Source: Rikenellaceae bacterium (GTDB taxonomy: Bacteria > Bacteroidota > Bacteroidia > Bacteroidales > Rikenellaceae). Taken from it: 64,000 nt of DNA. The notes beneath the pieces were generated by a model that saw only the letters and a list, made by a program, of their open reading frames with translations, ran no database searches and had not been told where the DNA came from. The stretch spans positions 337 to 64,336 of the forward strand of contig JBCQUC010000004.1 in assembly GCA_047174275.1 (NCBI GenBank). Reading direction: 5' to 3'. Of this stretch, positions 7,075 through 23,946 are shown piece after piece. Made by a program: the position numbers and the translations under genes. Each line of letters opens with the position of its first letter. The stretch's first letter is position 1.

Positions 7075-8640
7075 ATGATGGAGAGATTTTGTAGTAATGG
7101 AGAGGGAGGTTGTGTTAAAGTTCGAGAGTTGGATATACTCCTCGAAATAACCTCCATGTTGAGCAGCAAGGATATTGATCTAAATGCTGTGATTAATCTA
7201 TTAGCCGAACATTTGGACGTATATCGGCTTTTTCTAACTATCCTCAATCGAGAGAGTCAAAATATTCTAATTGAGGGTGCTTATGGACTATCCGATGCAG
7301 AGAAACGTGATGGAGTCTACCATATTGGGGAGGGTATCATCGGAAAGGTAATTGCAACTGGAGAGCCATATATGATCCCTAACGTTGCGGAGTCTGCGGA
7401 GTTTCTGAACCGCACGAAAGCACCTCTTAACAGTAAAGGTAATTACACCTCATTTATATGTATTCCCGTTAAATATAAGGGCGAAGTGGTTGGTACACTG
7501 AGCTTTCATAAATTGGTTGAGCAGACAAATGTCATGTTTGACGATGAGATGCGATTGCTGCATATTGTCGCAGGTATGGTTGGTCGAACAGTTCGTCGTC
7601 GACAGGAGTACTTCGAGGAGATGGAGAAGCTCAAACGAGAGAATAGTCGTCTACGTAACAATATAATCAGTTATACAACTCAACCAGACAACATTAAAGG
7701 AAAGTCAGGCAAGATGAGTGAGGTCTTCTCGCTTATTGAGAGTGTTGCGGCGACCGATGCAACGGTGATTATTCGCGGTGAGAGTGGTGTGGGAAAGGAG
7801 TTGGTTGCGGATGCAATCCATAGCGGTAGTGTGCGTCGAGACAAACCGTTTATTAAGGTCAATTGTGCGGCACTTCCCGATAGCCTCATTGAGAGTGAGA
7901 TCTTTGGACACGAGAAGGGTGCATTTACAGGTGCTACTCAGCGACATATTGGTCGTTTTGAGGCGGCAAATGGTGGTACAATATTTCTCGATGAGTTGGG
8001 CGATGTTCCAGCATCGACTCAGATCAAACTTCTTCGAGTGCTTCAAGAGCGTGAAATTCAGAGGTTGGGAAGCTCAGAGACTATAAAGGTCGATGTTCGA
8101 GTGATCTGCGCAACCAATAGAAATCTGGAGAAGATGATCGCCGATGGTGAGTTTCGAGAGGATCTATACTATCGACTCAATGTGTTTCCTATCTATATTC
8201 CACCCCTTCGAGAGAGAATCAACGATATCCCTGTTCTTGTTGACCACTTTATCGAGAAGTTCAACAATAGATACAATCGAAAAGTTAAGCGCATAACATC
8301 AATGGCGATTGATACCTTGATTATGTATAATTGGCCTGGAAATATCCGAGAGTTGGAGAACTGTATGGAGCGAGCCTATATTCTTAGTCAAGAGGGTGTT
8401 ATCAGAGTCCACAATCTTCCGCCAACACTTCAAACGGCAGCTTCGTCTCAGACCGCAGCAAAGGGTAGCCTAGGTATAATAATGGGTAATCTGGAGAAGC
8501 AGGTGATCGTCGATGCCCTTATATCGACCAAAGGAAATATCGCAAAGGCGGCAGAGTCGCTATCTATAACAGAGAGAATTATGGGTCTTAGGATCTCGAA
8601 ATATGAGATCGATCCGAAACGCTATAAACCACAAAAATAG
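7075..8640 (+). CDS. nifA: NifA-type sigma54 enhancer-binding protein (GAF-AAA+-HTH)
   Basis: N-terminal [11 protein letters not shown] Walker A, GAFTGA loop, [21 protein letters not shown]-terminal HTH; nif context. The start may be 7078. Confidence 0.9.
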
Positions 8641-8645
8641 AGATA

Positions 8646-9116
8646 ATGGAACTTACATTTGAGATATGTGACTACTCAAATCCAGCACATTTGACCGCTG
8701 TAGCGGATCTTTTGCAGGGATATATGGCCGACCCGATGGGGGAGCATCGACCACACAATAAATTGGAGCAACTTCGGTTGGTTGATGGTTTGGCTAACCA
8801 TCCAGCTTCATTCGTACTTCTTGCTTGTGTCGAGGATCAAGCTATAGGATTTGCAACCTGTTTCGAACTATTCTCGACATTTGAGATTAAGCCATTCATA
8901 AATATCCACGATTTTTTCGTCTTGCCTTCCTATAGGGGGCATGGTATCGGACGTGCAATGTTGGAACATATCTCGGAGATTGCAGTCGAGAAAAAGTGTT
9001 GCAAGGTCTCTTTGGAGGTGCGTACAGACAATGCGGTGGCGCAGGGACTATACCGAAGTGTAGGGTTTGGCGAGGCAAATCCCGATATGTTGTTTTGGGT
9101 GAAAACCTTTTATTAG
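8646..9116 (+). CDS. GNAT-family N-acetyltransferase
   Basis: Acetyl-CoA motif A (V-LPSYRGHGIGRAML) and NAVAQGLYRSVGF; 5 bp after the nifA stop. Confidence 0.88.
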   Translation: MELTFEICDYSNPAHLTAVADLLQGYMADPMGEHRPHNKLEQLRLVDGLANHPASFVLLACVEDQAIGFATCFELFSTFEIKPFINIHDFFVLPSYRGHGIGRAMLEHISEIAVEKKCCKVSLEVRTDNAVAQGLYRSVGFGEANPDMLFWVKTFY

Positions 9117-9413
9117 TGTTCGATAAAAATCCAACAAACCTTTGTAATGCACTGTAATATAACAGATTGTATGCGTTTGTAAAATCAGGGACTTGCTTTT
9201 GCGAATAGTCCCATTTGAGATACGAAATTGAAAATTTCGTCATCCTGAACTTGTTTCAGGATCTCAGCAAATGACAATGTAGTCACAGTAGTGTGTTAAT
9301 AAACAATAGTTTAGTAAATGGTGTAGGGATCCTGAAACAAGTTCAGGATGACGAAATTTTCAATTTCGTATCTCACGTATGACTTGCTAGAAACGTTTTA
9401 TCAGACACTAATA
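9111..9413. mobile_element. Family 1 nested REP-doublet element, copy A
   Basis: Outer TIR TTAGTGT(C/T)(C/T)GATAAAA with TA flanks; inverted REPs GTCATCCTGAACTTGTTTCAGGATC(T/C)C around a 60-nt spacer (9266-9325). Confidence 0.85.
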
Positions 9414-9430
9414 AAAAAACTTTAGAGGAT

Positions 9431-9670
9431 ATGAGTATTCAGAATGCAATAAATTTCTTGGCACGAGTTCAATCAGATGATGATTATAGACAATCGTGCT
9501 ACAAATTTCGAACGAAACAAGACCTCATGGAATATATACAGCAGGAGGGCTATAGCTTTTCGGATGGGGAGTTTGAAAATGCTATAAACCATCTCCTGCT
9601 GCGATGCTCAGATGCGTCACAGGGGTACGAAGTGCACCACCTGCAAAGCTGGTTTAGTCTGTTTCAGTAG
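9431..9670 (+). CDS. Nif11-like small protein
   Basis: MSIQNAINFLARVQSDDDYRQ...QEGYSFS-E resembles the Nif11 pattern (MS...FL..V..D..LR...GY.FT.EE); AGAGGA ribosome-binding site. Confidence 0.7.
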   Translation: MSIQNAINFLARVQSDDDYRQSCYKFRTKQDLMEYIQQEGYSFSDGEFENAINHLLLRCSDASQGYEVHHLQSWFSLFQ

Positions 9671-10061
9671 CCGATTTTAGTCGTTCGGTTACCAAATCTT
9701 TTAGTTCATTTAGACCCTCGATCATCCTATCAATTTGTGGATTGTCGGGGGTTCTGTATCCAAAGTCATCAATCGAGCAGATACCTTCGAACGAGCCTAC
9801 CAAGACAGCTGTCTTTCTAAGGCTGAGGCTCAAATCTGGCTCGAAATCGTTCACTTCGCGATAGAGCATAAGCGGAAGATGACTCGTTGCAATTGAGTCG
9901 TGGTGCGCCAACCATGCTATCATAAACTTCTCGAAACATATTGCTATCATATTGTATAGCAGATCGTTGTCGAATTTGCGATTCGGATTGCTAAATGATG
10001 ATGTTATTGTGTTGAGGTAACTATTAGCAAAGTCATAGTTATCTTTGGCTAACTCTTTCAT
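9654..10061 (-). CDS. Hypothetical protein with possible HEPN-like fold
   Basis: 135 aa, helical; ICFEKFMIAWL and TSHLPLML resemble the HEPN 'EK.LKA.L' and 'THDL..L' motifs. Confidence 0.6.
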   Translation of the reverse strand: MKELAKDNYDFANSYLNTITSSFSNPNRKFDNDLLYNMIAICFEKFMIAWLAHHDSIATSHLPLMLYREVNDFEPDLSLSLRKTAVLVGSFEGICSIDDFGYRTPDNPQIDRMIEGLNELKDLVTERLKSATETD

Positions 10062-10064
10062 AGT

Positions 10065-10232
10065 TATAGGGGAGTTCTAATAATTCCCTAATTTTAATTT
10101 TTAGTTAATAATTGCCCATTTTTGATTTTGCAAAAGTGGGTTGTAGTGGCTCTACCACCGATTTTTGAAAAATCGAAAAGGGGTGGTTAGTAACTGAAGG
10201 GTATTTTAGGGAATTATTAGAACTCCCCTATA
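10065..10232. mobile_element. Family 3 MITE, copy 2
   Basis: TIRs GGGGAGTTCTAATAATTCCC at both ends (element 10069-10228), TATA on both flanks. Confidence 0.8.
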
Positions 10233-11349
10233 TTGTTTTGTATATTGACAATAGTTCCGTAGGCTCTAAATCTCGTTTGTTGAGTGTGCACCAACGGCGT
10301 ACCTCCTCCAGAAGTCGAGGCAGGATCTCATCTCGGCAGACAACTCCCAACTCCTCTAGTGCAGATTTGAGGGTCGCCATACACGTATGTTTTCCTATCT
10401 TAAATCGACGCTCTGTGAGCCCAATCTCTTCGGCTTTGATAAGTTGATATGTTGATCGATCGCGTTTTAGATACTTCGTGTGGATCCCACTCTCGTGTGT
10501 TAAAACGAGCTCTCCGACAATAGGCTTCGATACGCTGTTTTTGCGTCCCGATATTCTCTCAACATAGCTGCAAATCGAAGGGAATAGAGTCTTGTTGAGC
10601 CCAGTTGTGATACCTGTACTCTTCTCTATAGCCATCACAACCTCCTCCATCGCTGCGTTTCCAGCCCTCTCGCCCAATCCATTAACTGTTGTGCTGAGAG
10701 CATCTGCCCCTGCCATCCATGCCGCTATCGTATTCGCACACGCCATTCCCAAGTCGTTGTGGGCGTGAAACTCAATCGAAATATCAGGGCTGAGATCCCT
10801 TATCGGGCGAATTAGATCTTGTGTCGAGAATGGGTTGAGCAGACCAACTGTATCTGCTAGGCGTATCCTCTTAGCTCCACTCTTAATTGTCTCAAATGCA
10901 AACTCCTCAAGGAAATGGCTGTTAGCACGAGAGGCATCTTGAGCCCCGACACTTACATAATCGAATGTCTCGTAACTCCTCGTAACAATCTCTTGAATCT
11001 CCTTGAGCACCCATTTACGACTCTTACCCATCACTCCAAGCAGTTTGTCTGAGACAGGGAACGATAGATGTATTCCATCCACGCCACTCTTACGTGCAAG
11101 TTCGATCTCCGAAGGCATAGCTCTGCACCATGCCAACATCCTAGCATCGAAATTTGCATCGGTTATCGCCTTGATCTCTTCGATCGCAGCACACCCCATT
11201 GCTGGGGTTCCAACCTCAAACTCACTGACTCCCGCTTCACACAACATCGAGACTAGAGCGAACTTTTCATCGAGGGTAAATGCTACCCCCGACGCTTGTT
11301 CACCGTCACGAAGTGTAGTGTCTACAAATATAGGGTGCTTATAACTCAT
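10228..11349 (-). CDS. nifV: Homocitrate synthase
   Basis: DTTLRDGEQ, LADTVG, HAHNDLGMA, NGLGERAGNA, HESGIH; nif context. Confidence 0.92.
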   Translation of the reverse strand: MSYKHPIFVDTTLRDGEQASGVAFTLDEKFALVSMLCEAGVSEFEVGTPAMGCAAIEEIKAITDANFDARMLAWCRAMPSEIELARKSGVDGIHLSFPVSDKLLGVMGKSRKWVLKEIQEIVTRSYETFDYVSVGAQDASRANSHFLEEFAFETIKSGAKRIRLADTVGLLNPFSTQDLIRPIRDLSPDISIEFHAHNDLGMACANTIAAWMAGADALSTTVNGLGERAGNAAMEEVVMAIEKSTGITTGLNKTLFPSICSYVERISGRKNSVSKPIVGELVLTHESGIHTKYLKRDRSTYQLIKAEEIGLTERRFKIGKHTCMATLKSALEELGVVCRDEILPRLLEEVRRWCTLNKRDLEPTELLSIYKTI

Positions 11350-11358
11350 ATATGCTCT

Positions 11359-11667
11359 TTAGTCACTAATCAAATACTTCTCGCATGCCTCTCCATCTTC
11401 GAGCGCATCAAGGATCTCGTCGATCGCATCCTCGCTATCCACGCCGCCATACCAGAAATTTAGAGGTTGGATAACCATTGCTGGTCCTTGTGAACATACA
11501 TTTAGACAGGCTGTAGTGCTTACCACGACATCTAGTCCGCGGTCGCTTGTCTCCTCGACAATATATTGTAAAAGTTGTGGTGCTCCCTTTTTGTTGCAAA
11601 CACCCAATGCCTCGCCGCTAACTCTGTACGAGTTGCATAGCAGAATGTGATACTGTGGCTTTTTCAT
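11359..11667 (-). CDS. Thioredoxin-like [2Fe-2S] ferredoxin
   Basis: LLCNSYR..C..KG and TACLNVCSQGP..WYG pattern. Confidence 0.88.
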   Translation of the reverse strand: MKKPQYHILLCNSYRVSGEALGVCNKKGAPQLLQYIVEETSDRGLDVVVSTTACLNVCSQGPAMVIQPLNFWYGGVDSEDAIDEILDALEDGEACEKYLISD

Positions 11668-11752: not shown

Positions 11753-11867
11753 GTTGATAGGTGGATGAAATTTTGAAGATGGCGTAGAGGGCTCTGGAAG
11801 GAGCATACTTTAAGTATGTGACTGAAGAGAACTCTATGGTATCTTTAAAATTTCGCCGCCTTGCAAC
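11753..11867 (-). repeat. Family 2 stem-loop/REP element, copy a (after nifB)
   Basis: Imperfect terminal IRs GTTGATAGGTGG...CCGCCTTGCAAC around a central palindrome GCATACTT-T-AAGTATG-TGAC; the shared flank extends to about 11730. Confidence 0.8.
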
Positions 11868-11887: not shown

Positions 11888-13141
11888 TCAACCGCATCCC
11901 ATTGCGTTCCCCTTGCAGTTTGATCCGCACTTGAAAGCGTCGCGTTTGGCTATAGACTTAATTACGCGGTTGCTATAGATTCCATCCAATCCCTCATCTA
12001 TAAGTCCTGTCATCTCAACAACATTGAGCCCAGAGCTCTTTAGAACCTTAAGTGGTTTGTCACCTACGCCACTTACAAGTAGTGCGCGACAATCTGAAAG
12101 CATCTTTGAGAGCATCTCCCAGCGGATATCACCCAATCCACGATCTGGAGTTTTGCGACTCTCGACCCACTTAAATCCATTTGGCGTTTGGCGATAAATA
12201 TTGAGTGAAGCAGCCTCTCCAAGATGCATATTTACAAGCATACCCTCATTTGTAGCTACGGCAACATATGGACGACTATCTGTGTCAACATCCGAACGCT
12301 GAGCATACTCGCTCATCAGAGCATGCGCTTCGCTCATATCCTGTCCCAAAAGACCAGCGGCATCCGCACGACACCTTGCGCAGTGGCTCATAAGTTTAAG
12401 GTGGTCTGACGCTAATGTGCGAACACGGAAGACCATCTTTGGATCAGGTTGCTCTAGATTCTCGAAAGCGGTGTCGGCAACAGGGATAAGCGGAATGCAG
12501 TTTATAACATCAGCACCCAATTCAGAGCATACTCTAGCAACCTCCTTGATCCCATCCTCGTTGATCGTTGGGATTATAATACTGTTGATCTTTACAGTTA
12601 TACCCTTCGCCTTTAGCTTTGGGATACATGCTAACTGCTTGTCGAGGAGTCTCTTTGCTCCATCTTCGCCTCGATAGATATGCTTTCCATCGCGAACCCA
12701 TTTGTAGATCTTCGCAAGAACCTTTGTGTCGATACTATTTATTGTGATGGTTACGTGGCTAACATTTAGCTCAGCAATCTCATCAATATATGGCTCTAGA
12801 CCAAGTCCATTTGTTGATAGGCAGAAGATCTTATCAGGGAATCTCTCGTGTGCAAGACGCATAGTCTCAAGAGTCTCCTCAGGGTTTGCAAATGGGTCTC
12901 CAGGGCCTGCAATACCAATTACCGACAGGTTTGGCATACGCTTATCGAGCTCCTCAAGATAACCTACAGATTGTTTTGGTGTGAGAATTGTCGATGTCAC
13001 TCCTGGGCGACTCTCGCTTACGCAATCATATTTGCGATTGCAATAGTTGCACTGAATATTGCACTTTGGCGCAACGGGTAGGTGTACTCGTGCGTGGGTA
13101 TGTTTTGCTTCAGCGTCGAAGCATGGGTGCTTGTGTTCCAT
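11888..13141 (-). CDS. nifB: FeMo-cofactor radical SAM protein NifB with C-terminal NifX-like domain
   Basis: HPCF, PKCNIQCNYC (CxxxCxxC), ESRPGV, IAGPGDP, HCARCRADA. Confidence 0.97.
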   Translation of the reverse strand: MEHKHPCFDAEAKHTHARVHLPVAPKCNIQCNYCNRKYDCVSESRPGVTSTILTPKQSVGYLEELDKRMPNLSVIGIAGPGDPFANPEETLETMRLAHERFPDKIFCLSTNGLGLEPYIDEIAELNVSHVTITINSIDTKVLAKIYKWVRDGKHIYRGEDGAKRLLDKQLACIPKLKAKGITVKINSIIIPTINEDGIKEVARVCSELGADVINCIPLIPVADTAFENLEQPDPKMVFRVRTLASDHLKLMSHCARCRADAAGLLGQDMSEAHALMSEYAQRSDVDTDSRPYVAVATNEGMLVNMHLGEAASLNIYRQTPNGFKWVESRKTPDRGLGDIRWEMLSKMLSDCRALLVSGVGDKPLKVLKSSGLNVVEMTGLIDEGLDGIYSNRVIKSIAKRDAFKCGSNCKGNAMGCG

Positions 13142-13145
13142 GATC

Positions 13146-14450
13146 TTAAATGTATTTATACCCTACGGGTGAGTTCTCTTGTTTATACTCTATTAATGCG
13201 TTTACAACTCTATCAAATAGCTCTTGTGTGCCTCGATATCCGATCTTTAACTGACGAGCAGCTCCAAAACGGTCGTGGATCGGGAATCCAACACGTATGA
13301 TTGGGATCTTTAGTTCGCGAGCTATATAGTAACCTTTGCTGCTTCCCATCATAATGTCGGGTTTGATCTGGTTGAGTTTGGCGTGTATCGACTCAAAATC
13401 TGTATCGGTGAACGAATAGACCTCAAGTCCAATCTCCTTGCACCATGCTGATAGTGCCGAGACCAAATCTGCCTCTCCGTAGATTGCGATCTTTTTGCCG
13501 AATAGATATTTGTGAGCATCTACATACGCATCTATCAATCGTCCACGCTCCATCTGATACTTCTTTGGGATCTCAACTCCATACTCAGCACTGAGACACT
13601 CCATAAATCTATCCGAAGCCTCTATGCCAATTGGAATCGGCATCTGGGTGTTTTTTACTCCGCAATCACTCTCCAGCCACTCTCCACCTGTTGGGATACG
13701 CCCGCTCTCGGATGTACGTTTGTAGAACTGGTTGAATCTCTCTCCAAACTCAATGACAGCCTTTGCATCTCCACACTCCTCAATCTCTTTGAGTGGTGTT
13801 CCTCCACTTGGAATAAGTTGATACTCCGCTGTATATACATTGTCGAGTGACTCGCTGTAGTCGGGAAATACCGTCCCCGTAACACCAAAGTCAGCGATGA
13901 TCTCCTTGATATATCTGATATCGGCAGGTGTCACCATTCCTGGTAGAACAACTAGCTTCTCGGTTCGCTTAGTTGACTTTGCGAGTGTCTTTAATGCTGA
14001 GAGAACCGTATTGTGAAACCCTTCGGCATGCGATCCACAGTAGCTAGGTGTCGAACTATGGATAAATGCTGGAAGATTATCCGACATCTTTGCATCGCGG
14101 TAGTTTCTGATGTGACCTGGGATATCCTCACCAATTGTCTCCGAGAGACATGTAGAGGCGATTCCGATCACCTTTGGGTGGTACTGTTTTATTATATTGT
14201 CTATTCCTGTTATGAAGTTTTTACTTCCTCCATATACCGTCGACTCCTCCGAAAAGTTGCTCGATGCAATATCTACGGGCTCTTTGTAGTGGCTAATCAT
14301 ATATCGGCGGATATATGTTGCACACCCTTGTGATCCGTGAATAAGCGGAACACAACCCTCAATCCCCTTGAATACCAACGATGCTCCAAGTGGGGCGCAA
14401 AGTTTGCAAGCGTTGCGCGACGATACGTATGTTTTATCCTCTGTTTTCAT
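13146..14450 (-). CDS. nifN: Nitrogenase cofactor scaffold NifN
   Basis: CAPLGA, HGSQGCATY, TCLSETIGED, GFPIHDR. Confidence 0.92.
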   Translation of the reverse strand: MKTEDKTYVSSRNACKLCAPLGASLVFKGIEGCVPLIHGSQGCATYIRRYMISHYKEPVDIASSNFSEESTVYGGSKNFITGIDNIIKQYHPKVIGIASTCLSETIGEDIPGHIRNYRDAKMSDNLPAFIHSSTPSYCGSHAEGFHNTVLSALKTLAKSTKRTEKLVVLPGMVTPADIRYIKEIIADFGVTGTVFPDYSESLDNVYTAEYQLIPSGGTPLKEIEECGDAKAVIEFGERFNQFYKRTSESGRIPTGGEWLESDCGVKNTQMPIPIGIEASDRFMECLSAEYGVEIPKKYQMERGRLIDAYVDAHKYLFGKKIAIYGEADLVSALSAWCKEIGLEVYSFTDTDFESIHAKLNQIKPDIMMGSSKGYYIARELKIPIIRVGFPIHDRFGAARQLKIGYRGTQELFDRVVNALIEYKQENSPVGYKYI

Positions 14451-15792
14451 CGCTCTCCCTCCTATTTGTTTTTGTAAATTTCCATACTGGAGTCATCGCT
14501 GTGGCGTAGATCTCCTTTGCAAAGTTCAACATCCCCTCGTATCCTGCAAGAGCCTCTTTGCGTTCGTGGTTGTGGTCACAAAAACCGAGTCCAATCTTGT
14601 AGGCTATCGGGCGTTCCTTCACACCTCCGATGAATATATCAGCCTCTTTCTCCTTTACGAAGTGGGAGAGCTCAATAGGGTTCGAGTCATCGACGATCAC
14701 AGTCCCCTCGTCACAAAGATTCTTTATGAGCTCATAATCTTCGGTAGAGCCAGTTTGAGATCCGATGATAACAGTCTTTACTCCGATGAGTCGAAGAGCC
14801 TTCACCAAAGAGATCGCTTTGAATGCTCCGCCGACATATATCGCAGCTCGCTTACCCTCCAAAGCCTCTTTGTATGGTTTTAGTGCAGGGAGCAGTCGAG
14901 TCATCTCGTCGCGGACAATTTCGCGAGCCCTCTCCATCATCTCGTCATCTTTGAAGAATCGAGCAACTTCGTATAGCGCATCGCTCATATCCTCAATTCC
15001 GAAGTATGATACATGCATAAATGGTGTGCCATACTCCTCTTTCATCATCTTGGCAAGGTGGATCATCGAGCCAGAACACTGCACAACATTGAGCCCCGCT
15101 TTGTGGGCGTTGCGAATATCATCGACACGTCCATCGCCAGTGATTGTTGCATTTACGTGGACTCCCATTCGCTTGTAGTATTCGAGCAGAATCCAGAGTT
15201 CACCCGCAAGGTTGAAATCTCCCAAAATATTTATACTCTTCTTGGGAATGTCGCCATCTCCTGTGCCGACCAACTTAAAGAGTGATTCACAAGCTACTTT
15301 GTAGCCATCTTTTTTCGAGCCCTGAAAACCTGGAGCTTGAACAGGTATTGTTGTGACACCAGTCTCCTCGGTCACCTGTTTACAGATCTGCTCAACATCA
15401 TCGCCAATCACACCTACGATACATGTCGTATAGACAAATGCCGCCTTTGGCTGGTGTGCTGCGATAAGCTCTATGAGCGAAGCGTATAACTTCTTTTCGC
15501 CGCCGAAGATTACATCTTTCTCTTGAAGGTCGGTCGAAAAACTTGTTCTGTGAAGTTCGGGCCCCGATGAAAGTGACCCTCGAATGTCCCAAGTGTATGC
15601 AGCGCAACCTATTGGGCCATGAATTATGTGTAAAGCATCCGCAATGGGGTATAGCACAACTCGTGATCCGCAAAAGACACACGCTCGTTGACTCATACTT
15701 CCTGCAAGACTCACTTTGCCAGCCTGAACAGTTGGTGCATCTGCGCCACTTGTCGAGACTTGCCTCTCCCTCTCCTTTAAAATGTGAGCCAT
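14434..15792 (-). CDS. nifE: Nitrogenase cofactor scaffold NifE
   Basis: RACVFCGSR, HGPIGCAAY, TCIVGVIGDD, VQCSGS. Confidence 0.93.
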   Translation of the reverse strand: MAHILKERERQVSTSGADAPTVQAGKVSLAGSMSQRACVFCGSRVVLYPIADALHIIHGPIGCAAYTWDIRGSLSSGPELHRTSFSTDLQEKDVIFGGEKKLYASLIELIAAHQPKAAFVYTTCIVGVIGDDVEQICKQVTEETGVTTIPVQAPGFQGSKKDGYKVACESLFKLVGTGDGDIPKKSINILGDFNLAGELWILLEYYKRMGVHVNATITGDGRVDDIRNAHKAGLNVVQCSGSMIHLAKMMKEEYGTPFMHVSYFGIEDMSDALYEVARFFKDDEMMERAREIVRDEMTRLLPALKPYKEALEGKRAAIYVGGAFKAISLVKALRLIGVKTVIIGSQTGSTEDYELIKNLCDEGTVIVDDSNPIELSHFVKEKEADIFIGGVKERPIAYKIGLGFCDHNHERKEALAGYEGMLNFAKEIYATAMTPVWKFTKTNRRESDENRG

Positions 15793-15808
15793 AACATTGA
15801 TTTTTTTG

Positions 15809-16086: not shown

Positions 16087-16105
16087 ATTTTTTTTGTTTT
16101 GTTAA

Positions 16106-16148
16106 TTCGAAGATCTCAACCCTCTAATTTGAGGTTGAAATCTTCGAA
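16106..16148 (-). promoter_or_regulatory. Stem-loop immediately 3' of nifK
   Basis: TTCGAAGATCTCAACCCTC-TAATTT-GAGGTTGAAATCTTCGAA, 9 bp after the nifK stop; no U-tract on the minus strand. Confidence 0.6.
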
Positions 16149-16157
16149 AATATTGTA

Positions 16158-17537
16158 TTACATTTGGAACTCAATAGTCTCCTCTGTGCACTCTCTATCA
16201 CGGTGAGATAGAAGCTCATGGATGATTGAAGTTACCATGTTCGCAGCTCCCTTATAACCAGTCTTAGCGAAGTAGTTGTGACCAGCACGATCGGCGATTG
16301 GGAATCCCATACGATAGAATGGTGTGTTCTCGTCGCGAGCGATATACTTACCATAAGTATTTCCGATCAACAAATCAACACCCTCTTGTTTGATCCACTG
16401 GTGAAGTTGGAACATATCGGCATTTGCACCGCTCTTCCACTTAGCCTCTGGGATATCCTTTAGTAGCTCAGCCATACGCTCCTCGAACTCCTTACCTGGA
16501 GTACCCGTTACGATGTATACTGGACGCATATCCATAGATACAAGGAACTCAACCATTGGGATAAGTGTGTCTGGATCGCCCCACAATGCTACACGCTTGC
16601 CATACAAGTGAACCGAAGCATCTGAGATCAAATCGAGCAACTGACCGCGCTCGTAAGTCAACTCATCCGATACTGGAACGTTTGCGTGGCGGCTGATAGA
16701 TGTCAAGAAACGATCTGTAGCCAAGAATCCGATTGGAATATCAAGAACCTCGAATGGAACTTTACACTGATTCTCCATCTTGATACAAGCGTCGGTTGTA
16801 GTGTATGAACCCAAACCTACAGATACCTTGCTGTCACCGCTTAGGCGGATATCTGCAATTTTAGCACCTCCATCTGGGTACATCTTGTATGTTCCAGTCA
16901 TTGGCCCATCCAATACTCCTGTCATATCTGGGAACATGAATGTGCGACTCTCCATAACCTTGCAAAGTCTCTTGATCTCAGCTTGATCCGATGGCTCCAT
17001 CCAACCCGAAATAAGGTTGATTACGTTGCGTCTCTTGCCTGTTTTTGTGGCAAACGACTTCACCATCGAAGTTACCTGATTTGCATATCCAGTGACGTGT
17101 GTTCCAACATAACTTGGTGTGTTACAGTAGATAACCTCCTTGCCAGCTGGGATAAATCCATCTTCTGCAGCCTTCGATACAATCTGAGTCATATCATCAC
17201 CAATTGTCTCCGAAAGACAAGTTGTGTGAACTGCGATAACCTCTGGGTCGTAAGTTGTGAAGATCGTATTGATCGCCTGAACCAAGTTGGCAGAACCTCC
17301 AAATACTGAAGAACCCTCAGAGAATGAACTTGTAGCTGCCATGATTGGCTCTTTGAAGTGACGTGTAAGTGCACTTCGGTGGTATGAGCAACATCCTTGT
17401 GAACCGTGGCTATGTGGCAAACACCCGTGGATACCGAGTGCCGCGTACATTGCACCAACTGGTTGACAAGTCTTTGCTGGGTTGACCGTCAGAGCTTTTC
17501 TTTCGATCTCCTTATCTGTTGTGTGTCTTAATAACAT
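16158..17537 (-). CDS. nifK: Nitrogenase MoFe protein beta chain
   Basis: NPAKTCQPVGA, HGSQGCCSY, TTCLSETIGDD P-cluster ligands. Confidence 0.97.
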   Translation of the reverse strand: MLLRHTTDKEIERKALTVNPAKTCQPVGAMYAALGIHGCLPHSHGSQGCCSYHRSALTRHFKEPIMAATSSFSEGSSVFGGSANLVQAINTIFTTYDPEVIAVHTTCLSETIGDDMTQIVSKAAEDGFIPAGKEVIYCNTPSYVGTHVTGYANQVTSMVKSFATKTGKRRNVINLISGWMEPSDQAEIKRLCKVMESRTFMFPDMTGVLDGPMTGTYKMYPDGGAKIADIRLSGDSKVSVGLGSYTTTDACIKMENQCKVPFEVLDIPIGFLATDRFLTSISRHANVPVSDELTYERGQLLDLISDASVHLYGKRVALWGDPDTLIPMVEFLVSMDMRPVYIVTGTPGKEFEERMAELLKDIPEAKWKSGANADMFQLHQWIKQEGVDLLIGNTYGKYIARDENTPFYRMGFPIADRAGHNYFAKTGYKGAANMVTSIIHELLSHRDRECTEETIEFQM

Positions 17538-17550
17538 AATCTTTCCCTCT

Positions 17551-19179
17551 TTAATTTAGTACATAGCTTGCCTCAACATATGCCTCACGCTCCCATGGTG
17601 CCTTCAAATATTTGTGAAGTGTAGCGCATGAGATCATCTCGATATCTTTGTAGAAGTTGATAGCACCTGCAAATCCTGCATATGGGCCACCAGAATCGTA
17701 GTTGTGAAGCATCTTCAATGGAATACCCATCTTCTGAGCAACATACTTCTCCTTGATACCTGCACAGAATACATCTGGGTGGTATAGCTCGATCAACTTC
17801 TCCATCTCGTAGTGGCTCAAATCGTCGATAACGAGTGTGCCCTTCTGCATATCTGCCATAAGTCCCTCGTAGTCGTTGAACTCGCCGCCATTCGAGATCT
17901 TTGTCAAGTGCTCATCTGGTTTACGCTTGTTGTAACGCTCCTCATCTTTGTAGACTGTGATCTCCTCGATGTTACGGCTATCGGCATCAACTTGGATTGT
18001 TGGAATCACGCGGCGACCCTCGTAGTCATCACGGTGACCGAACTCATATCCAGCTGCAAGAGTTGTCATACCCAACTCGTTGAATAGCTCTTGGTAGTGG
18101 TGAGCGCGAGATCCACCGACAAACAACATCGCTGTCTTGCCAACTGTCTTTTTGCGAGCCTGCTCAGCTGCAGCCTCAACACGTACCATCTCCTCAGCGA
18201 TAACCTTCTCGATCTGGTCGATAAGCTCCTGATCCTCGAAGTACTCTCCGATTTTGCGAAGTGATTTAGCTGTTGCCTCAGCACCGATGAAGTTACACTT
18301 AGTCCAAGGAATACCGAACGATGTATTCAACATCTCAGCTACGTAGTTGATTGAACGGTGACACATAACAAGACTCAAATCTGCTGTGTGAGCACGCTCA
18401 AACTTAGTCATTGTAGCATTTCCCGACATTGTAGCGATTAGCTCAATTCCGCAACGATCCATCAAATCCTCAATTACGAAAGCGTCACCTCCGATGTTGT
18501 ACTCTCCAAGCAGATTGACACGATACTTGTGCTTGCCCTCGATTGTGTCATCCTTACCGATACAGTTCTTGTAGAGCTGATTGTTCGCGATGTGGTGACC
18601 AGCCGACTGAGATACTCCACGATATCCCTCGCAAGAGAAACCGATGATGTTAACCCCAGGGAACTCCTCCTCCATCTGGCGAGCTACACGGTGAACATCA
18701 TCACCGATAAGACCTACAGGACAAGTTGAGAATACTCCGATCGCCTTTGGGTGGAATAGCTCCATCGCCTCGCGGATCGCCTGCTTTAGCTTCTCCTCAC
18801 CACCGAATACGATGTTTGAGTCCTGCATATCAGTTGAGAAACAGTATGGGATGTAGTTCTCATCCATGTCAGACTCTGGGCGAGTCTGGTTACGACGTGT
18901 AAGCCATGAGTAGAATCCGCAACCGATCGGGCCGTGTGTGATATTTACGATATCACGAGTTGGTCCCATGATTACTCCCTTACAACCTGCGTAAGTACAA
19001 CCACGCTGTGTGATGATACCTGGCACTGTACGTACATTGGCTTGGATCTTTGGGATCAGATCTGGGTCGTTTACGGCAACCGCCTTAGAACGTTTTTTTG
19101 CTACCTTCTTCGGGTACTTCTCAGCTACCGCCTCGACGAACTCCGAAAAATCTGGTAATTTCTTTATATCTTCTTTCAT
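17551..19179 (-). CDS. nifD: Nitrogenase MoFe protein alpha chain (long, group II type)
   Basis: RGCTYAGC, HGPIGCG, TCPVGLIGDD, SAGHHIAN, MCHRSINY, GGSRAHHY, LHNYDSGGPY; about 50-aa insertion (RVIPTIQVDADSRNIEE...). Confidence 0.97.
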   Translation of the reverse strand: MKEDIKKLPDFSEFVEAVAEKYPKKVAKKRSKAVAVNDPDLIPKIQANVRTVPGIITQRGCTYAGCKGVIMGPTRDIVNITHGPIGCGFYSWLTRRNQTRPESDMDENYIPYCFSTDMQDSNIVFGGEEKLKQAIREAMELFHPKAIGVFSTCPVGLIGDDVHRVARQMEEEFPGVNIIGFSCEGYRGVSQSAGHHIANNQLYKNCIGKDDTIEGKHKYRVNLLGEYNIGGDAFVIEDLMDRCGIELIATMSGNATMTKFERAHTADLSLVMCHRSINYVAEMLNTSFGIPWTKCNFIGAEATAKSLRKIGEYFEDQELIDQIEKVIAEEMVRVEAAAEQARKKTVGKTAMLFVGGSRAHHYQELFNELGMTTLAAGYEFGHRDDYEGRRVIPTIQVDADSRNIEEITVYKDEERYNKRKPDEHLTKISNGGEFNDYEGLMADMQKGTLVIDDLSHYEMEKLIELYHPDVFCAGIKEKYVAQKMGIPLKMLHNYDSGGPYAGFAGAINFYKDIEMISCATLHKYLKAPWEREAYVEASYVLN

Positions 19180-19190
19180 AGGAATCTTAT

Positions 19191-19556
19191 TTAATCGAGT
19201 GTGATATCTCCAGTCTCACCTGTGCGGACACGAACTGATTCGAATGTGTTGACCACGAAGATCTTACCATCTCCACTCTTGCCCGTTTGGTTAACCTTAA
19301 TAATTGTCTCTACAGCCAAATCCTTCTTGTCGTCAGTTACAACAAGCGTAATCATACGCTTAGATTTTAGACGTGGATTCTGCTGAATATGCTCGTGGTG
19401 CTCAGGGTCGATACCCTCAGCCTTCTCCAAATCGCCGTGACCCTTACCACGTCCCACAACTGGAAGAGCTGTGAACGATGGTAGATCGACTGCAGAGAGA
19501 GCCTCCTTAGTCTCGGTCATCTTCGCGATACGGATGATTGCCATTATTAACTTCAT
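19191..19556 (-). CDS. nifI2: NifI2, PII-like nitrogenase switch-off protein
   Basis: GRGKG, PKR-like SKRMI, TGKSGDGKIFV, RVRTGE; located between nifH and nifD. Confidence 0.88.
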   Translation of the reverse strand: MKLIMAIIRIAKMTETKEALSAVDLPSFTALPVVGRGKGHGDLEKAEGIDPEHHEHIQQNPRLKSKRMITLVVTDDKKDLAVETIIKVNQTGKSGDGKIFVVNTFESVRVRTGETGDITLD

Positions 19557-19588
19557 AGTAATCTAATTTATTAGTCGTTTTTTGTAAA

Positions 19589-19630
19589 GTTGATAGGTGG
19601 ATGAAATTTGAAATTTCGTCGCATTGCAAC
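19589..19630 (-). repeat. Family 2 element, internally deleted copy b (after nifI1)
   Basis: GTTGATAGGTGGATGAAATTT-GAAATTTCGTCGCATTGCAAC: only the terminal arms remain. Confidence 0.7.
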
Positions 19631-19631
19631 T

Positions 19632-19958
19632 TTACACCTCCATGAATCCTGAAGAGATAGTATAGCACTCCTCAACTGGTGTAACGAAGATCTTACCATC
19701 TCCGAACTGTCCTGTTGCGCTAGAGCGAGCTGAGTTTATGATTGTCTCAATCACAAAATCTTTGTCCTTCTTTTTGATAGTAATCATCAACATCTCCTTT
19801 GGAAGCTCATCATACGTTACGTTTCCAGCCTTGATACCACGCTGCTTACCACGTCCATATACTGCGATCTTTGTAACGGCTGGGAATCCAGCGTCCATCA
19901 ACGACTTCATTACTACTGCCGATTTTTCTGGTCTTACGATTGCTCTAATTAAATACAT
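19632..19958 (-). CDS. nifI1: NifI1, PII-like nitrogenase switch-off protein
   Basis: AIVRPEK, GRGKQRG, YDELPKEML, GQFGDGKIFV. Confidence 0.88.
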   Translation of the reverse strand: MYLIRAIVRPEKSAVVMKSLMDAGFPAVTKIAVYGRGKQRGIKAGNVTYDELPKEMLMITIKKKDKDFVIETIINSARSSATGQFGDGKIFVTPVEECYTISSGFMEV

Positions 19959-19996
19959 TGTCTTGATTTTTTATTTGGTTTGTGTTTTGCTCAAAA

Positions 19997-20111
19997 GTTG
20001 ATAAGTGGATGAGATCTTGTGCATCGTAAGCTGGCGGAGGAGGGAGCATACTTTGGGTATGTGACCGATTGCCGACAGCTTGGGATGTGCAAGATCTCAC
20101 CACCTTGCAAC
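19997..20111 (-). repeat. Family 2 element, copy c (after nifH)
   Basis: GTTGATAAGTGG...GAGCATACTTTGGGTATGTGAC...CCACCTTGCAAC with divergent inner arms. Confidence 0.75.
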
Positions 20112-20117
20112 TTTTGT

Positions 20118-20975
<858 letters not shown>

Positions 20976-21008
20976 TTAAGTTATCTATTTTCTTATGCTG
21001 TTTAATCT

Positions 21009-21024
21009 TGCATTAAGTGTGCCA
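21009..21024 (-). promoter_or_regulatory. Sigma54 (-24/-12) promoter of nifH
   Basis: Minus strand TGGCAC-ACTTA-ATGCA with correct GG-N10-GC spacing, about 65 bp upstream of the ATG. Confidence 0.85.
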
Positions 21025-21155: not shown

Positions 21156-21197
21156 TACATTTCTGTAGCTTTTCTTATGTGGATGTAGCAAAATGTA
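21156..21197. promoter_or_regulatory. Candidate activator-binding region of the nifH promoter
   Basis: TACA-TTTC-TGTA at 21156-21167 plus TGTA half-sites at 21184 and 21194. Confidence 0.5.
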
Positions 21198-21298: not shown

Positions 21299-21539
21299 TA
21301 TTAGTGTTCGATAAAACTTTTCTAGCAGTCCTACTTGAGATACGAAATTGAAAATTTCGTCATCCTGAACTTGTTTCAGGATCTCTACATCATTGAGTAA
21401 GCTATTGCTTATTAGTATATTACAGAGGCGATATTGTCATTTGCTGAGATCCTGAAACAAGTTCAGGATGACGAATCCGTTGGATTCGATAACATGGTGC
21501 CAATAAAGTTGTTACAAGTGTTGTTATCGGACACTGATA
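21299..21539. mobile_element. Family 1 nested REP-doublet element, copy C
   Basis: Outer TIRs with TA flanks, REP doublet, 60-nt spacer; an extra REP remnant follows at 21545-21557. Confidence 0.85.
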
Positions 21540-21570
21540 AACTCGTTTCAGGATCTCCGCAGAGCTAATT

Positions 21571-22320
21571 TTAATATGTTACAGTCGAAAGCCTACACTC
21601 TATAATAGAGTTGCATTTTTTGTGTCGTTTAAAGAAGAAGGATCTTCCGCCACAACTCTCCGTATGTGTCGATATAACTCGATCCTCCCCCTTTGAAAAT
21701 CCAAAGTGTAGGATTGAGGTCGCCATAGCTGTAATATCTGCTGGGTCGTGACACACCATTAGTGTGATGCTTCCAAGCATTTTGTGTGCCTGCTTGATAC
21801 TCTCTCTGAGTGACTCCTTTAACTCCCAATCTAGGGCGGAGAATGGTTCATCGAGTAGCAACATTGATGGCTCTGAAGCTATCGCACGAGCCAAAGCGAC
21901 ACGTTGCTTCTGCCCACCTGAGAGCTGTTGAGGGTATCGAGAGTGGAGTGCGCCGATATTGAAACACTCAAGCAACTCCATTATCTTCTGTTCATCTTTG
22001 TTTGGTTGAGCGTACAGAATCTGCTCAAATACCGTCATATTTGGAAATAGCGCAAAATCCTGAAACATCAACCCTGTTCTACGCTTCGATGCTGGCACAA
22101 ATATTCTCTTGTCGGTGTCGCACCACACCTCTCCATCAAATACTACACGACCTCTGTGAGGCTTCACAAGCCCCGATATAATCCTTAGTAGGGTAGTCTT
22201 GCCAATTCCCGATGCACCCTGCAAACAGACAATATCCCCCAAATTTAGATCTGCACGTACCTCCAAAAGAGATCTACCTTCGACTGTGTAGAGTGGCTGT
22301 TTGATATCAATTTCCAACAT
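21571..22320 (-). CDS. modC: Molybdate ABC transporter ATPase
   Basis: GASGIGKT, LSGGQKQRVALARA, LLLDEPF; mod context. Confidence 0.9.
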   Translation of the reverse strand: MLEIDIKQPLYTVEGRSLLEVRADLNLGDIVCLQGASGIGKTTLLRIISGLVKPHRGRVVFDGEVWCDTDKRIFVPASKRRTGLMFQDFALFPNMTVFEQILYAQPNKDEQKIMELLECFNIGALHSRYPQQLSGGQKQRVALARAIASEPSMLLLDEPFSALDWELKESLRESIKQAHKMLGSITLMVCHDPADITAMATSILHFGFSKGEDRVISTHTESCGGRSFFFKRHKKCNSIIECRLSTVTY

Positions 22321-23002
22321 AATCGTTTTGGTTTTTGTGTGACCTATTATTGAAACTGTAGATTATTGTGAGTAGTACCACTGCGATTACAAATAGCACA
22401 ATCGAGTATCTATTTGCATTATCATATTGGAGTGCCTGCACCTGATCGTATATTGCAATTGATGCTACGCGAGTCTCGCCTGGGATATTTCCACCAACCA
22501 TAATTATAACACCAAACTCACCGATGCAGTGTGCAAACGATAGGGCTAGCGATGTTATAATAGATGGCATCATATTGGGAAGTAGGACTCGAAAGAATAT
22601 GCTTAACTTTGATTTGCCCAATGTCTCGGCGGCATCGCTCAAATTTCGAGGTATAGAGATAAACCCCGATTGAAGGGGTTGAATCATGATCGGGAGTCCA
22701 AAGAGGACGCTACCAATCAATATCCCCTCGAAGCTAAATGCGAGTCGACTATCGAATGTCTCGTACCACCAAGTGCCAAACCATGAGTTTGGGCTATATA
22801 ACATAAGTAGGTAGAATCCCAAAACTATTGGTGGCAACACCATCGGAATGCTAATCAGTGCCTCGATAAGAGAGCGCGCAAAGAAGCGTTTGTATGCCAA
22901 AAAATAGGCTATCGGCAACCCTATTATAAATAGTATTGCCGTAGTGCTAAATGCGAGTTTGCCAGTGAGGAGTAGTGTCTCCCAAAAATCTGCGTCATTC
23001 AT
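22307..23002 (-). CDS. modB: Molybdate ABC transporter permease
   Basis: PMVLPPIVLGFYLL, EAA-like AAETLG, GEFG, GNIPGETR. Confidence 0.93.
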   Translation of the reverse strand: MNDADFWETLLLTGKLAFSTTAILFIIGLPIAYFLAYKRFFARSLIEALISIPMVLPPIVLGFYLLMLYSPNSWFGTWWYETFDSRLAFSFEGILIGSVLFGLPIMIQPLQSGFISIPRNLSDAAETLGKSKLSIFFRVLLPNMMPSIITSLALSFAHCIGEFGVIIMVGGNIPGETRVASIAIYDQVQALQYDNANRYSIVLFVIAVVLLTIIYSFNNRSHKNQNDYVGN

Positions 23003-23071
23003 GAAATTTCCCCCAAAATTTATAAATTAGAGATTATTGCAAAACGGTAGTTTTGCTCCGCTATGGAGAGT

Positions 23072-23185
23072 GTTGATAGGTGGATGAAAATTTAAAGATG
23101 GCGTAGAGGGCCCTGAAAGGAGCATACTGAAGTATGTGACTGAAGAGAACTCTGCGTTATCTTTGAATTTTCGCCGCCTTGCAAC
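23072..23185 (-). repeat. Family 2 element, copy d (after modA)
   Basis: Near-identical to copy a, including the left flank AGTTTTGCTCCGC. Confidence 0.8.
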
Positions 23186-23193
23186 GCTCTCAA

Positions 23194-23946
23194 TTATTTT
23201 ACTATATCGTATCCGTACTTCAACCATATGGGCTTCGACTCTGCGGATAGTACAAAGTCCCGAAACTTTATAGCCTCAAGATTCTCTATTTTTTGCTTAA
23301 CCACAACACAGCTCTGAATTATTGGGCTGTATAGGTTGTCTGGAATAATATACGTATATCCATTGTTTTGAGCCGTTGGTGATCTGTGTTGGGATAGGGC
23401 AATCACTCCAAGATCTGCATTGCCCGAGAATACATACTGTGCAGTAGCTCCGATATTCTCTCCATATATAATCTTTGATTTTACATCGTTATATATTCCT
23501 ATGTTGTTCAACATCTCAATGGCGTGTACTCCATATGGTGCGGCGTTTGGATTTGCGATGGCTATTCTGTGTGATTTGTTGAGCGTCAATGCGTCGAGCC
23601 CGATCTGTGAGATATCTATTGAGCGGCTATATAGGAGTAGTTTTCCGCATGCATAGGGTCTCACTTCGCCTGTTGTGTAGCCTCCGCTCTTTAGTTTGAG
23701 TGCATAATCTTCATCTGCGGAGAAGAATAGGTCGTAGCCTGCGCCATTCACGATCTGTTGCACCAACATTCCAGATCCTCCGTAGTTGATATTGATTGCA
23801 ACTTTTGGGTTGCTCTCTATATATATAGACTTGATCTCATCCATTGCATCGCGAACGTTTGCGGCAGCGGCAATGCTTACAACACTCTGGGCATAGGTAT
23901 TGGCTGAAAAGACAATACAGATAATAAATAATAGGGCTCTCTTCAT
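23194..23946 (-). CDS. modA: Molybdate-binding periplasmic protein
   Basis: Signal peptide, AAAAN, GGSGML.QQI.NGA.YDLFFSA, ANP.AAPYG. Confidence 0.93.
   Translation of the reverse strand: MKRALLFIICIVFSANTYAQSVVSIAAAANVRDAMDEIKSIYIESNPKVAININYGGSGMLVQQIVNGAGYDLFFSADEDYALKLKSGGYTTGEVRPYACGKLLLYSRSIDISQIGLDALTLNKSHRIAIANPNAAPYGVHAIEMLNNIGIYNDVKSKIIYGENIGATAQYVFSGNADLGVIALSQHRSPTAQNNGYTYIIPDNLYSPIIQSCVVVKQKIENLEAIKFRDFVLSAESKPIWLKYGYDIVK

Follow-up and report, generated by a model that had tools for sequence, protein, structure and literature searches.

The window, the 64-kb stretch of DNA analysed here, very probably carries a complete anaerobe-type Mo-nitrogenase regulon of Bacteroidales architecture in a small, low-GC Alistipes, where it would be a ~17-kb insertion relative to the sister species and a recombinant from a shared cassette pool. 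We put at about even the chance that co-resident Alistipes species and neighbouring Rikenellaceae genera, all of one habitat, share the nif-mod cassette as a circulating and recombining module, which is re-sited in the chromosome and patched segment by segment without recognisable mobility genes. If this is true, what maintains diazotrophy in the guild is gene flow, not vertical inheritance followed by loss. Such exchange matters when nifH phylogeny serves to decide which taxa of a gut metagenome are diazotrophs, and hosts with protein-poor diets may gain nitrogen from N2-fixing gut Bacteroidales.

Host genome and published background

The window's genome (G000) is a 2.21-Mb, 43.8% GC Rikenellaceae MAG in 116 contigs. 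It belongs to a genus of 376 species, among them closed 3-4-Mb genomes, that is consistent with Alistipes; the 'Alistipes-like' guess of a preliminary description, made from the letters alone, was right. The host is consistent with the small-genome, low-GC Alistipes published from fish gut (PMC11748540). Facimoto 2024 reported nifHDK and nifA in Alistipes of Kyphosus sydneyanus that have low GC and genomes of ~2.2 Mb, with nif genes restricted to one Alistipes group in the hindgut, and N2-fixing activity in this gut was reported at the community level only (PMC11748540, citing its ref. 40). Those genomes resemble ours in family, by all indications in genus, in size, in low GC and in nifH/D/K/A, and the NifD of the K. 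sydneyanus Rikenellaceae MAG L129 is 87% identical to the window's NifD. That report is limited to KEGG presence/absence and maps neither the locus nor its insertion site; cassette phylogeny and repeats are not part of it. Metatranscriptomes of the K. sydneyanus hindgut have been published as BioProject PRJNA1029302. Inoue 2015 described the cluster architecture of Bacteroidales nif genes and leaned to mainly vertical descent within the order (PMC4356463). Diazotrophy is therefore not unprecedented here, as the preliminary description had said: the trait is published for fish-gut Alistipes, the cluster type for Bacteroidales, and the locus is of the ordinary anaerobe type. Because N2 fixation by Alistipes has been proposed since 2024, the locus in itself adds only one well-annotated example; new here is a recombinant cassette placed at a site that is empty in the closest relative.

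Gene content of the locus

All named ORFs are uninterrupted (Table 1). The minus-strand order is nifH-I1-I2-D-K-E-N-B-fdx-nifV-HEPN-like, plus modABC; the minimum set nifHDKENB is present and intact (6/6), and prfB and an OMP gene flank the cluster, where the preliminary description had placed it. Paludibacter propionicigenes, Dysgonomonas gadei and 'Ca. Azobacteroides' have a like arrangement, nifH, two glnB-like genes, DKENB and a ferredoxin, with nifA and modABC near (PMC4356463). Compared with the clusters of Inoue 2015, the window adds nifV, the HEPN-like gene, Nif11 and GNAT as mapped conserved members; a GNAT gene is likewise part of most of the other Bacteroidales nif loci in the comparison. 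The predicted fold of the 135-aa HEPN-like protein is helical (pLDDT 87.5) and resembles the HEPN proteins 1WOL, 1UFB and 2HSB (TM 0.65-0.72). An R-x6-H HEPN motif in this protein was rejected, because the Arg is replaced by His in every Rikenellaceae copy and R-x6-H is thus no conserved catalytic motif.

Table 1. Features of the nif-mod locus and its borders (positions in the window).
Feature	Position	Strand	Remarks
prfB	5799-6908		left flank
left border spacer prfB/nifA	6909-7074		single-copy, repeat-free
putative Bacteroidetes-type -7 box	6975-6982		TAACTTTG; upstream of nifA
nifA	7075-8640	+	Pfam domains GAF, sigma54-activator AAA+ (GAFTGA, residue 282), HTH_8
GNAT acetyltransferase	8646-9116	+	starts 5 bp past nifA
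Nif11-domain ORF	9431-9670	+	79 aa; PF07862, E 3e-9
HEPN-like accessory ORF	9654-10061	-	135 aa, conserved; terminal gene of nifH operon
nifV	10228-11349	-	homocitrate synthase
fdx	11359-11667	-	thioredoxin-like 2Fe-2S ferredoxin
nifB	11888-13141	-	radical SAM CxxxCxxC and C-terminal NifX-like domain; PF04055, PF02579
nifN	13146-14450	-	overlaps nifE
nifE	14434-15792	-	overlaps nifN
nifE/nifK spacer	15793-16157		family-1 palindromic MITE inside; left recombination breakpoint
family-1 palindromic MITE arms	15865-15893, 15958-15986		in nifE/nifK spacer
nifK	16158-17537	-	
nifD	17551-19179	-	
nifI2	19191-19556	-	PII-family
nifI1	19632-19958	-	PII-family
nifH	20118-20942	-	
predicted sigma54 -24/-12 promoter	21009-21024	-	TGGCACACTTAATGCA; 81 nt upstream of nifH
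palindrome TACA-N4-TGTA	21156-21167		about -225 to nifH
modC	21571-22320	-	molybdate ABC transporter
modB	22307-23002	-	molybdate ABC transporter
modA	23194-23946	-	molybdate ABC transporter
right border spacer modA/omp	23947-24222		single-copy
predicted sigma54 promoter	23976-23991	-	TGGCACAGATAATGCT; upstream of modA
two TACA-N4-TGTA palindromes	24114-24125, 24135-24146		upstream of modA
beta-barrel OMP gene	24223-24786		right flank; PF13505

Type and integrity of the nitrogenase

NifH has the P-loop GKGGIGKS at 8-15, Cys94 and Cys131 (Av 97, 132), the motifs CAGRG at 94 and VCGGFA at 130, and Arg97 (Av 100). The P-cluster ligands Cys61, Cys87 and Cys153 and the FeMo-co ligands Cys273 and His492 (Av 275, 442) are found in NifD together with an SQSAGHH motif; Cys24, Cys49, Cys107 and Ser142 are present in NifK, and NifB has CxxxCxxC at residue 27. 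The preliminary description had claimed nifHDKENB, nifV, nifA, nifI1/I2, a ferredoxin and modABC to be intact with their cofactor ligands, and every metallocluster ligand was indeed found. NifD residues 16-533 align to the Clostridium pasteurianum alpha chain (4WES/1MIO; E 5e-179, phmmer), and this end-to-end alignment confirmed that the group II insertion seen earlier is the clostridial one of ~50 residues; A. vinelandii-type chains align with this NifD only up to residue 387. NifK, with 459 aa and a short N-terminus, aligned with 1MIO_B residues 5-455 (E 4e-169, phmmer). The C. pasteurianum MoFe and Fe proteins (4WES, 1MIO, 1CP2) are thus alike in full-length alignment, alpha insertion, short beta chain and all ligands, but the window's proteins have clearly diverged from them in sequence. 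To our knowledge, nifI1/I2 are not known between nifH and nifD from C. pasteurianum, unlike in the window's cluster. Two PII-family genes at this position are a feature of the NifI1/NifI2 switch-off of methanogens and other anaerobes, and their function here may be the same. Judged by its ligands, insertion and gene set, the enzyme is a predicted Mo-nitrogenase of the anaerobe type (Raymond group II, that is, NifH cluster III).

NifH scored 459 bits against TIGR01287 (cut-off 394). NifE, NifB, ModA and ModB also score above NCBIfam equivalog cut-offs, and NifD, NifK, NifN, NifA and NifV slightly under them. The genome has one NifH above cut-off and no second NifD (anf/vnf); it carries rpoN, two amtB and one PFOR, the gene of which is seen as two pieces at contig ends. 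For every cassette gene with measurable dS, dN/dS is 0.004-0.10, far below 1, showing at the level of sequence that the cassette is under purifying selection. The word 'functional', used of the locus earlier, can be followed as far as ligands, low dN/dS, sigma54 promoters and rpoN/amtB/PFOR carry it.

Promoters and proposed working

Just two sites in the window match TGGCAC-N5-NTGC, one before nifH and one before modA. The same element lies ahead of nifH in 8 of 11 Rikenellaceae loci, versus 0.15% of shuffles, and a loosened pattern matched 9/36 loci, all except one from Rikenellaceae. In the 330 nt before nifH no canonical NifA site (TGT-N10-ACA) was found; the palindrome TACA-N4-TGTA is there instead, at about -225, and is conserved across Bacteroidales families. 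The GAF/AAA+ (GAFTGA)/HTH activator, rpoN in the genome and the -24/-12 promoters together point to a NifA/sigma54 regulon.

We infer nitrogenase activity and the following regulatory logic. NifA would be made from an ordinary Bacteroidetes promoter and, together with sigma54, would switch on two promoters, one for the operon from nifH to the HEPN-like gene and one for modABC. Molybdate would be brought in by ModABC, FeMo-co would be assembled by NifB, NifEN and NifV, and N2 would be reduced by NifH and NifDK with electrons from PFOR and ferredoxin. Once fixed nitrogen is available, NifI1/I2 would shut off the enzyme.

The insertion site is empty in the sister species

The closest relative of G000 is the sister species G296 (CysS 95%), in which prfB, omp and a hydrolase gene are contiguous, the site is empty, and nif lies on another contig. 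G296 is collinear with window positions 4317-6901 and 24925-40678; homology with its empty site ends at 6901 on the left and starts again at 24925 on the right, and the intervening omp gene is only 48% identical with that of G296. Relative to G296, a ~17-kb block would have been inserted between prfB and the OMP gene. The flanks of nif in G296 map inside two separate G000 contigs, C75 and C55, so rearrangement was involved; a reciprocal empty site in G000 for the G296 nif location was not found. The genes that flank the cassette in G000 are beside it in 0 of 10 nif+ relatives examined, and the flanks of the reference loci G297, G290 and G412 are not shared with the other relatives. In these three loci the neighbours are Dak1, FGE-sulfatase, porin, TonB receptor, ABC ATPase, glycoside hydrolase and aldolase genes. 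Because synteny decays fast in this group, the differing flanks of distant relatives are weak evidence alone, and it is the comparison of G000 with G296 that makes a strong case.

By composition the cassette cannot be told from its genome (GC 44.2 vs 43.8%, and the 35th percentile for tetranucleotide distance), and its load of the lineage-specific MITE is the genome average, which argues that it is resident at the species level. An island inherited vertically at the prfB-OMP site would also share these properties, would show no integrase or att repeats, and would agree with the mainly vertical descent favoured by Inoue 2015 (PMC4356463). Against it stand the empty site in G296, with nif elsewhere, and the lack of flanks common to any relative. 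The synteny at prfB in nif+ relatives thus does not support the 'long-resident island' of the preliminary description, and the cassette does not appear to be an old fixture of this chromosomal site.

A nif block mis-joined into an Alistipes contig during assembly or binning would be conceivable, since the MAG is in 116 contigs and its community includes many related species, and since the breakpoints fall in repeat-bearing spacers. However, both outer junctions and the internal breakpoint were recovered at 99.98-100% identity in Logan single-run contigs (four runs) and in another MAG's 109-kb contig. The runs in which this sequence occurs are SRR26879384, SRR26879386, SRR26557943 and SRR27046595. 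An identical NifK is on four 50-200-kb contigs; one of them repeats the window's arrangement of nifK, spacer and nifE, and the remaining three appear similar. Both flanks continue one G296-collinear backbone. Contig chimerism, which the preliminary description had named as a finding that would overturn its reading, was looked for and is excluded, and such an artefact is extremely improbable.

The cassette is a mosaic of two lineages

NifD is found in 13 of the 376 species of the genus, 11 of these among the 14 genomes G288-G301, and in 3 of the 31 genera of Rikenellaceae. The Nif proteins are monophyletic with those of Bacteroidales, sister to the Paludibacter clade. The nucleotide similarity switches at 15.8-16.05 kb and again in or near nifH. 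Between these points lies a 'type-2' segment, host-clade and G296/G297-like (16158-20942; nifK, nifD, nifI2, nifI1 and nifH); nifE to nifA form a 'type-1', G290/G412-like segment, and modABC (21571-23946) is of the G290-like lineage. In the HDK tree G000 and G296 are nested in the G297-type clade (support 99), and in the ENB tree they join G290 (100) and G412 (96). Trees with the groupings exchanged are rejected by AU tests (p 8.7e-10, 1.5e-58 and 3.3e-4).

The host tree, built from two genes only (CysS and PrfB), places G000 and G296 with the type-2 carriers. In the comparison of NifHDK with the host, proposed earlier as a check, nifH-K agrees with the host, as vertical inheritance would have it; the ENB and mod segments conflict with both HDK and host. 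Moreover, between G000 and G296 the dS values of nifA, nifV and fdx have reached saturation, against a backbone dS of 1.0-1.9, and G290 has a NifD more similar to the one of G412, another genus (89%), than to those of its congeners (81-83%). With these results, a vertically inherited island at the prfB-OMP site is unlikely.

The reading that we prefer is that a G290/G412-like cassette (nifA to nifE, and modABC) carries a nifK-nifH core of the host clade's own type, and that the cassette may come from a nif pool which a single sub-clade of Alistipes has in common with nearby genera of Rikenellaceae. The direction of the segment exchange and its mechanism are inferred here. Confinement to one sub-clade (13/376), differing sites even in sister species and the two-lineage mosaic argue for exchange among co-resident species. 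In contrast to the view of Inoue 2015, the history of nif within Alistipes thus appears to be recombinational, not simply vertical.

Repeats and mobility

No integrase, transposase or conjugation genes were found in the flanks of the window's locus or of those in G290, G297 and G412. The outer borders have no direct, inverted or att repeats, each border spacer occurs only once in the genome, and there is no tRNA at the insertion site. The preliminary description had likewise seen no integrase or att repeats. The locus is not a classical genomic island or integrative element; only its presence/absence polymorphism versus the sister species is island-like. The nif island of Pseudomonas stutzeri A1501 is a self-contained nif region in one lineage, and the same site is empty in close relatives. 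The window's cassette is likewise self-contained, but at 17 kb it is by far the smaller of the two, does not deviate in composition, and would be exchanged among close relatives, not across classes.

A dedicated mobile element carrying the cassette, be it an ICE, a transposon or a MITE-flanked composite, would explain why the location differs in each species. The genome has ~730 arms of a palindromic MITE, with three copies in the cassette, and family-1 MITEs bracket nifK to nifH. However, besides the missing mobility genes, border repeats and tRNA, the age of the family-1 MITE counts against such an element, which we consider quite unlikely. G296 has the mosaic, yet its nifE-nifK spacer is 57 bp long and MITE-free, and no family-1 arms were found in the 37.6 kb of G296 sequence examined, suggesting that the family-1 MITE post-dates the exchange. 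For the same reason, MITEs were rejected as the cause of the recombination. In the window the spacers are filled by three MITE families, and the seven MITE insertions in operon spacers could attenuate transcription.

An intact cassette of known kind

ORF listing and NCBIfam scans found all of the nif, ferredoxin and mod genes named in the preliminary description, uninterrupted, at window 7075-23946. The source genome (G000) measures 2.21 Mb in 116 contigs and is 98.9% complete; the window covers positions 337-64336 of its contig C13. Contig chimerism at the locus borders, a concern raised in that description, was ruled out by independent contigs that span both junctions. An exact-protein look-up recovered the prfB-nifA-GNAT junction in one Logan single-run contig and the hydrolase-omp-modA junction in two others, and a second MAG has the entire right half on a 109-kb contig, all at 99.98-100% identity to the window. 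An identical NifK occurs on four 50-200-kb contigs, of which the one displayed shares the nifK-spacer-nifE layout of the window and the remaining three were flagged as similar places.

Cofactor ligands were checked by phmmer against PDB chains and by motif positions. NifH has the P-loop, both 4Fe-4S cysteines and Arg100; NifD has the three P-cluster cysteines, Gln191/His195 and the FeMo-co ligands Cys273 and His492; NifK has Cys24, Cys49, Cys107 and Ser142; and NifB has the radical-SAM motif and a NifX-like tail. The group II insertion reported for NifD (Raymond group II, that is, NifH cluster III) holds, because the protein aligns end to end with the C. pasteurianum alpha chain, ~50-residue insertion included, whereas alignments with A. 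vinelandii-type chains end at residue 387. Only one NifH lies above the family cut-off in G000 and no second NifD was found in the genome; therefore, there is no alternative nitrogenase.

Programmed +1 frameshifting is common in bacterial prfB; the prfB beside the cassette, at window 5799-6908, shows no sign of it.

Coordinates and layout of the features (window positions unless another sequence is named)
Feature	Position	Strand	Remarks
Left flank			cysS-prfB
prfB	5799-6908	+	single unbroken 369-aa ORF, starting directly after the cysS stop
nifA, GNAT gene, 79-aa Nif11-domain ORF (PF07862)		+	GNAT gene 5 bp behind nifA
nifH, nifI1, nifI2, nifD, nifK, nifE, nifN, nifB, 2Fe-2S ferredoxin, nifV, 135-aa ORF		-	
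135-aa HEPN-like ORF	9654-10061	-	
modA-modB-modC		-	separate operon ahead of the nifH operon
Right flank			beta-barrel OMP gene, then alpha/beta-hydrolase, murF-like gene, ddl
TGGCAC-N5-NTGC	21009-21024	-	81 nt upstream of nifH
TGGCAC-N5-NTGC	23976-23991	-	45 nt upstream of modA
TACA-N4-TGTA	21156-21167		upstream of nifH
TACA-N4-TGTA (two)	24114-24146		upstream of modA
PFOR gene ends	G000:C25:15092-15595 and G000:C31:2-976		middle unassembled
Family 1	9235-9356, 15865-15986, 21355-21476, 28562-28656, 35742-35861, 43303-43471, 59181-59270		
Family 2	11753-11867, 19985-20132, 23072-23185		spacers fdx/nifB, nifI1/nifH, modB/modA
Family 2, nif contig of G296 (L021)	11297-11425, 13463-13598, 13946-14059		spacers nifK/nifD, nifI2/nifI1, nifI1/nifH
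Family 3	10062-10227		spacer 135-aa ORF/nifV
Family 3	4137-4299		spacer TMEM260-like gene/cysS
Porin-like gene, nif locus of G290	L037:1278-2408		between nifH and modC

Regulation and functional context

NifA has GAF, AAA+ (with GAFTGA) and HTH domains, and rpoN, two amtB genes and a PFOR (nifJ-like) gene split over two contig ends are present in G000. The element TGGCAC-N5-NTGC has only two sites in the 64-kb window, ahead of nifH and modA, and lies upstream of nifH in 8 of 11 Rikenellaceae loci versus 0.15% of shuffled regions. The canonical TGT-N10-ACA site is absent from the nifH upstream region. A TACA-N4-TGTA palindrome (chance occurrence 1.35% per region) stands at about -150 to -240 before nifH and is kept in Alistipes, Paludibacter, Dysgonomonas and termite-gut MAGs; the sequences in which it precedes nifH include L112, L114-L116, L125, L127, L131, L132, L139, L145 and others, from several Bacteroidales families. 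The palindrome is a candidate site for NifA binding in Bacteroidales and may take the place of TGT-N10-ACA. The dN/dS values of the cassette genes between G000 and relatives are 0.004-0.10 where dS is measurable. The nif/mod regulon is real, intact and of a known kind, and it is probably functional.

Most of the Bacteroidales nif loci compared contain a homologue of the 135-aa ORF; the product of this ORF matches no Pfam family. A confident AlphaFold model (pLDDT 87.5) has five helices, and its best PDB matches are the HEPN-domain proteins 1WOL, 1UFB and 2HSB (TM 0.65-0.72, with weak E-values), suggesting a HEPN-like fold. The motifs RFDN, EK, GxFExICS and FGY(R/K)xP are invariant. An R-x6-H stretch considered as a HEPN motif is not kept in Rikenellaceae.

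Distribution and earlier reports

The nearest database entries to NifD are labeled 'MAG: Rikenellaceae bacterium' (92-95%), followed by many Bacteroidales MAGs at ~80% and Paludibacter at 78%; a Rikenellaceae MAG from Kyphosus sydneyanus (L129) has a NifD 87% identical. The genus of G000, which is consistent with Alistipes, comprises 376 species in the collection, closed 3-4-Mb genomes among them. NifD is found in 13 of the 376 species (3/149 among high-quality genomes) and in 3 of 31 genera of the family sample, and 11 of the 14 nearest kin by CysS identity, ranked within the genus (G288-G301), carry nif.

The presence of nif in such Alistipes is already in the literature, because hindgut Alistipes of K. 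sydneyanus with low-GC genomes of ~2.18 Mb and with nifHDK and nifA have been described by Facimoto et al. (2024, PMC11748540), who cite prior community-level nifH expression and N2 fixation, and the Bacteroidales layout (nifH, two glnB-like genes, DKENB and a ferredoxin, with nifA and modABC nearby) by Inoue et al. (2015, PMC4356463).

A lineage-specific cassette site

Tblastn of the window genes against the 25-28-kb nif loci of ten relatives showed the same cassette content, but cysS, prfB, hydrolase, murF or ddl adjoined it in 0/10. The flanks of three reference relatives (G297, G290 and, outside the genus, G412) are not common to other relatives; the genes there are ordinary ones of metabolism and transport, and no integrase or transposase is among them. 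G296, which is the closest relative (CysS 95%, PrfB 93%), shares collinear sequence with the window over 4317-6901 and 24925-40678, and in it an OMP gene alone separates prfB from the hydrolase gene. The nif cassette of G296 was found on a contig of 17.6 kb, the ends of which match interiors of two other G000 contigs, C75 and C55. The ~17-kb nif/mod block is therefore an insertion/deletion difference between sister species.

A mosaic cassette

Identity to relatives shifts along the cluster. In the NifH+D+K tree, G000 and G296 are nested among G297, G292, G298, G294, G295 and G288 (support 99), with G290 and G412 outside. In the NifE+N+B tree they join G290 (100) and G412 (96), against seven G297-type rows (100). 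When the grouping from one segment was tested on the data of the other, AU tests rejected it in each case (p = 8.7e-10 and 1.5e-58, and p = 3.3e-4). A 300-bp sliding window placed one lineage switch in the nifE-nifK spacer (15.8-16.05 kb) and another within or close to nifH, with modCBA again G290-like. The CysS+PrfB host tree places G000 and G296 (100/97) with the G297-type carriers and G290 in another clade. Most backbone genes have a dS of 1.0-1.9 between G000 and G296; the nifH-K values are lower, at 0.24-0.75, and those of nifA, GNAT, nifV and fdx are saturated. The NifD of G290 shares 89% identity with the NifD of G412, from a different genus, versus just 81-83% with congeners. These data are most simply read as a G290/G412-like cassette in which the allele of the host clade has overwritten the nifH-K core, with additional exchange in the left arm; we infer the direction of exchange from these sequences, leaning on a host tree of two genes.

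With the site empty in G296, the flanks not beside the cassette in 10/10 relatives and the cassette mosaic, the 'long-resident island' of the preliminary description should be replaced by a recombinant cassette that comes from a pool common to one Alistipes sub-clade and occupies a lineage-specific site.

Repeats within the cassette

Cassette GC and tetranucleotide composition are in line with the genome. The outer border spacers are single-copy in the genome, and the internal spacers hold three MITE-like families. Family 1 is a palindrome with arms GATCCTGAAACAAGTTCAGGATGACGAAA, of which ~730 occur in the 2.2-Mb genome, or one element in every 6 kb or so; within the cassette it occupies the GNAT-nif11, nifE-nifK and nifH-modC spacers, and an arm is found within 300 bp of 32 of the 232 contig ends. 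Arm density is 0.36 arms/kb in the cassette and 0.33 arms/kb in the genome, and the 37.6 kb of G296 examined contained no arm; the cassette was therefore in the G000 lineage during the expansion, and the MITEs are younger than the mosaic. The family is essentially absent from ~0.5 Mb sampled from 20 relatives. Family 2 (~130 bp, ~25 genome copies) occupies different spacers in G000 and G296, and so moves within the operon, leaving every ORF unbroken. Family 3 is a 166-bp palindrome with about nine genome copies.

Variant layouts in relatives

The G290 locus holds a 376-aa porin-like outer-membrane gene (PF02530/DcaP). The G297 locus (L023/L024) has unrelated ORFs in place of the adjoining nifA, GNAT and nif11. 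The G297-type cassettes with modA, G297 itself excepted, have this gene upstream of nifA on the opposite strand instead of after modB.
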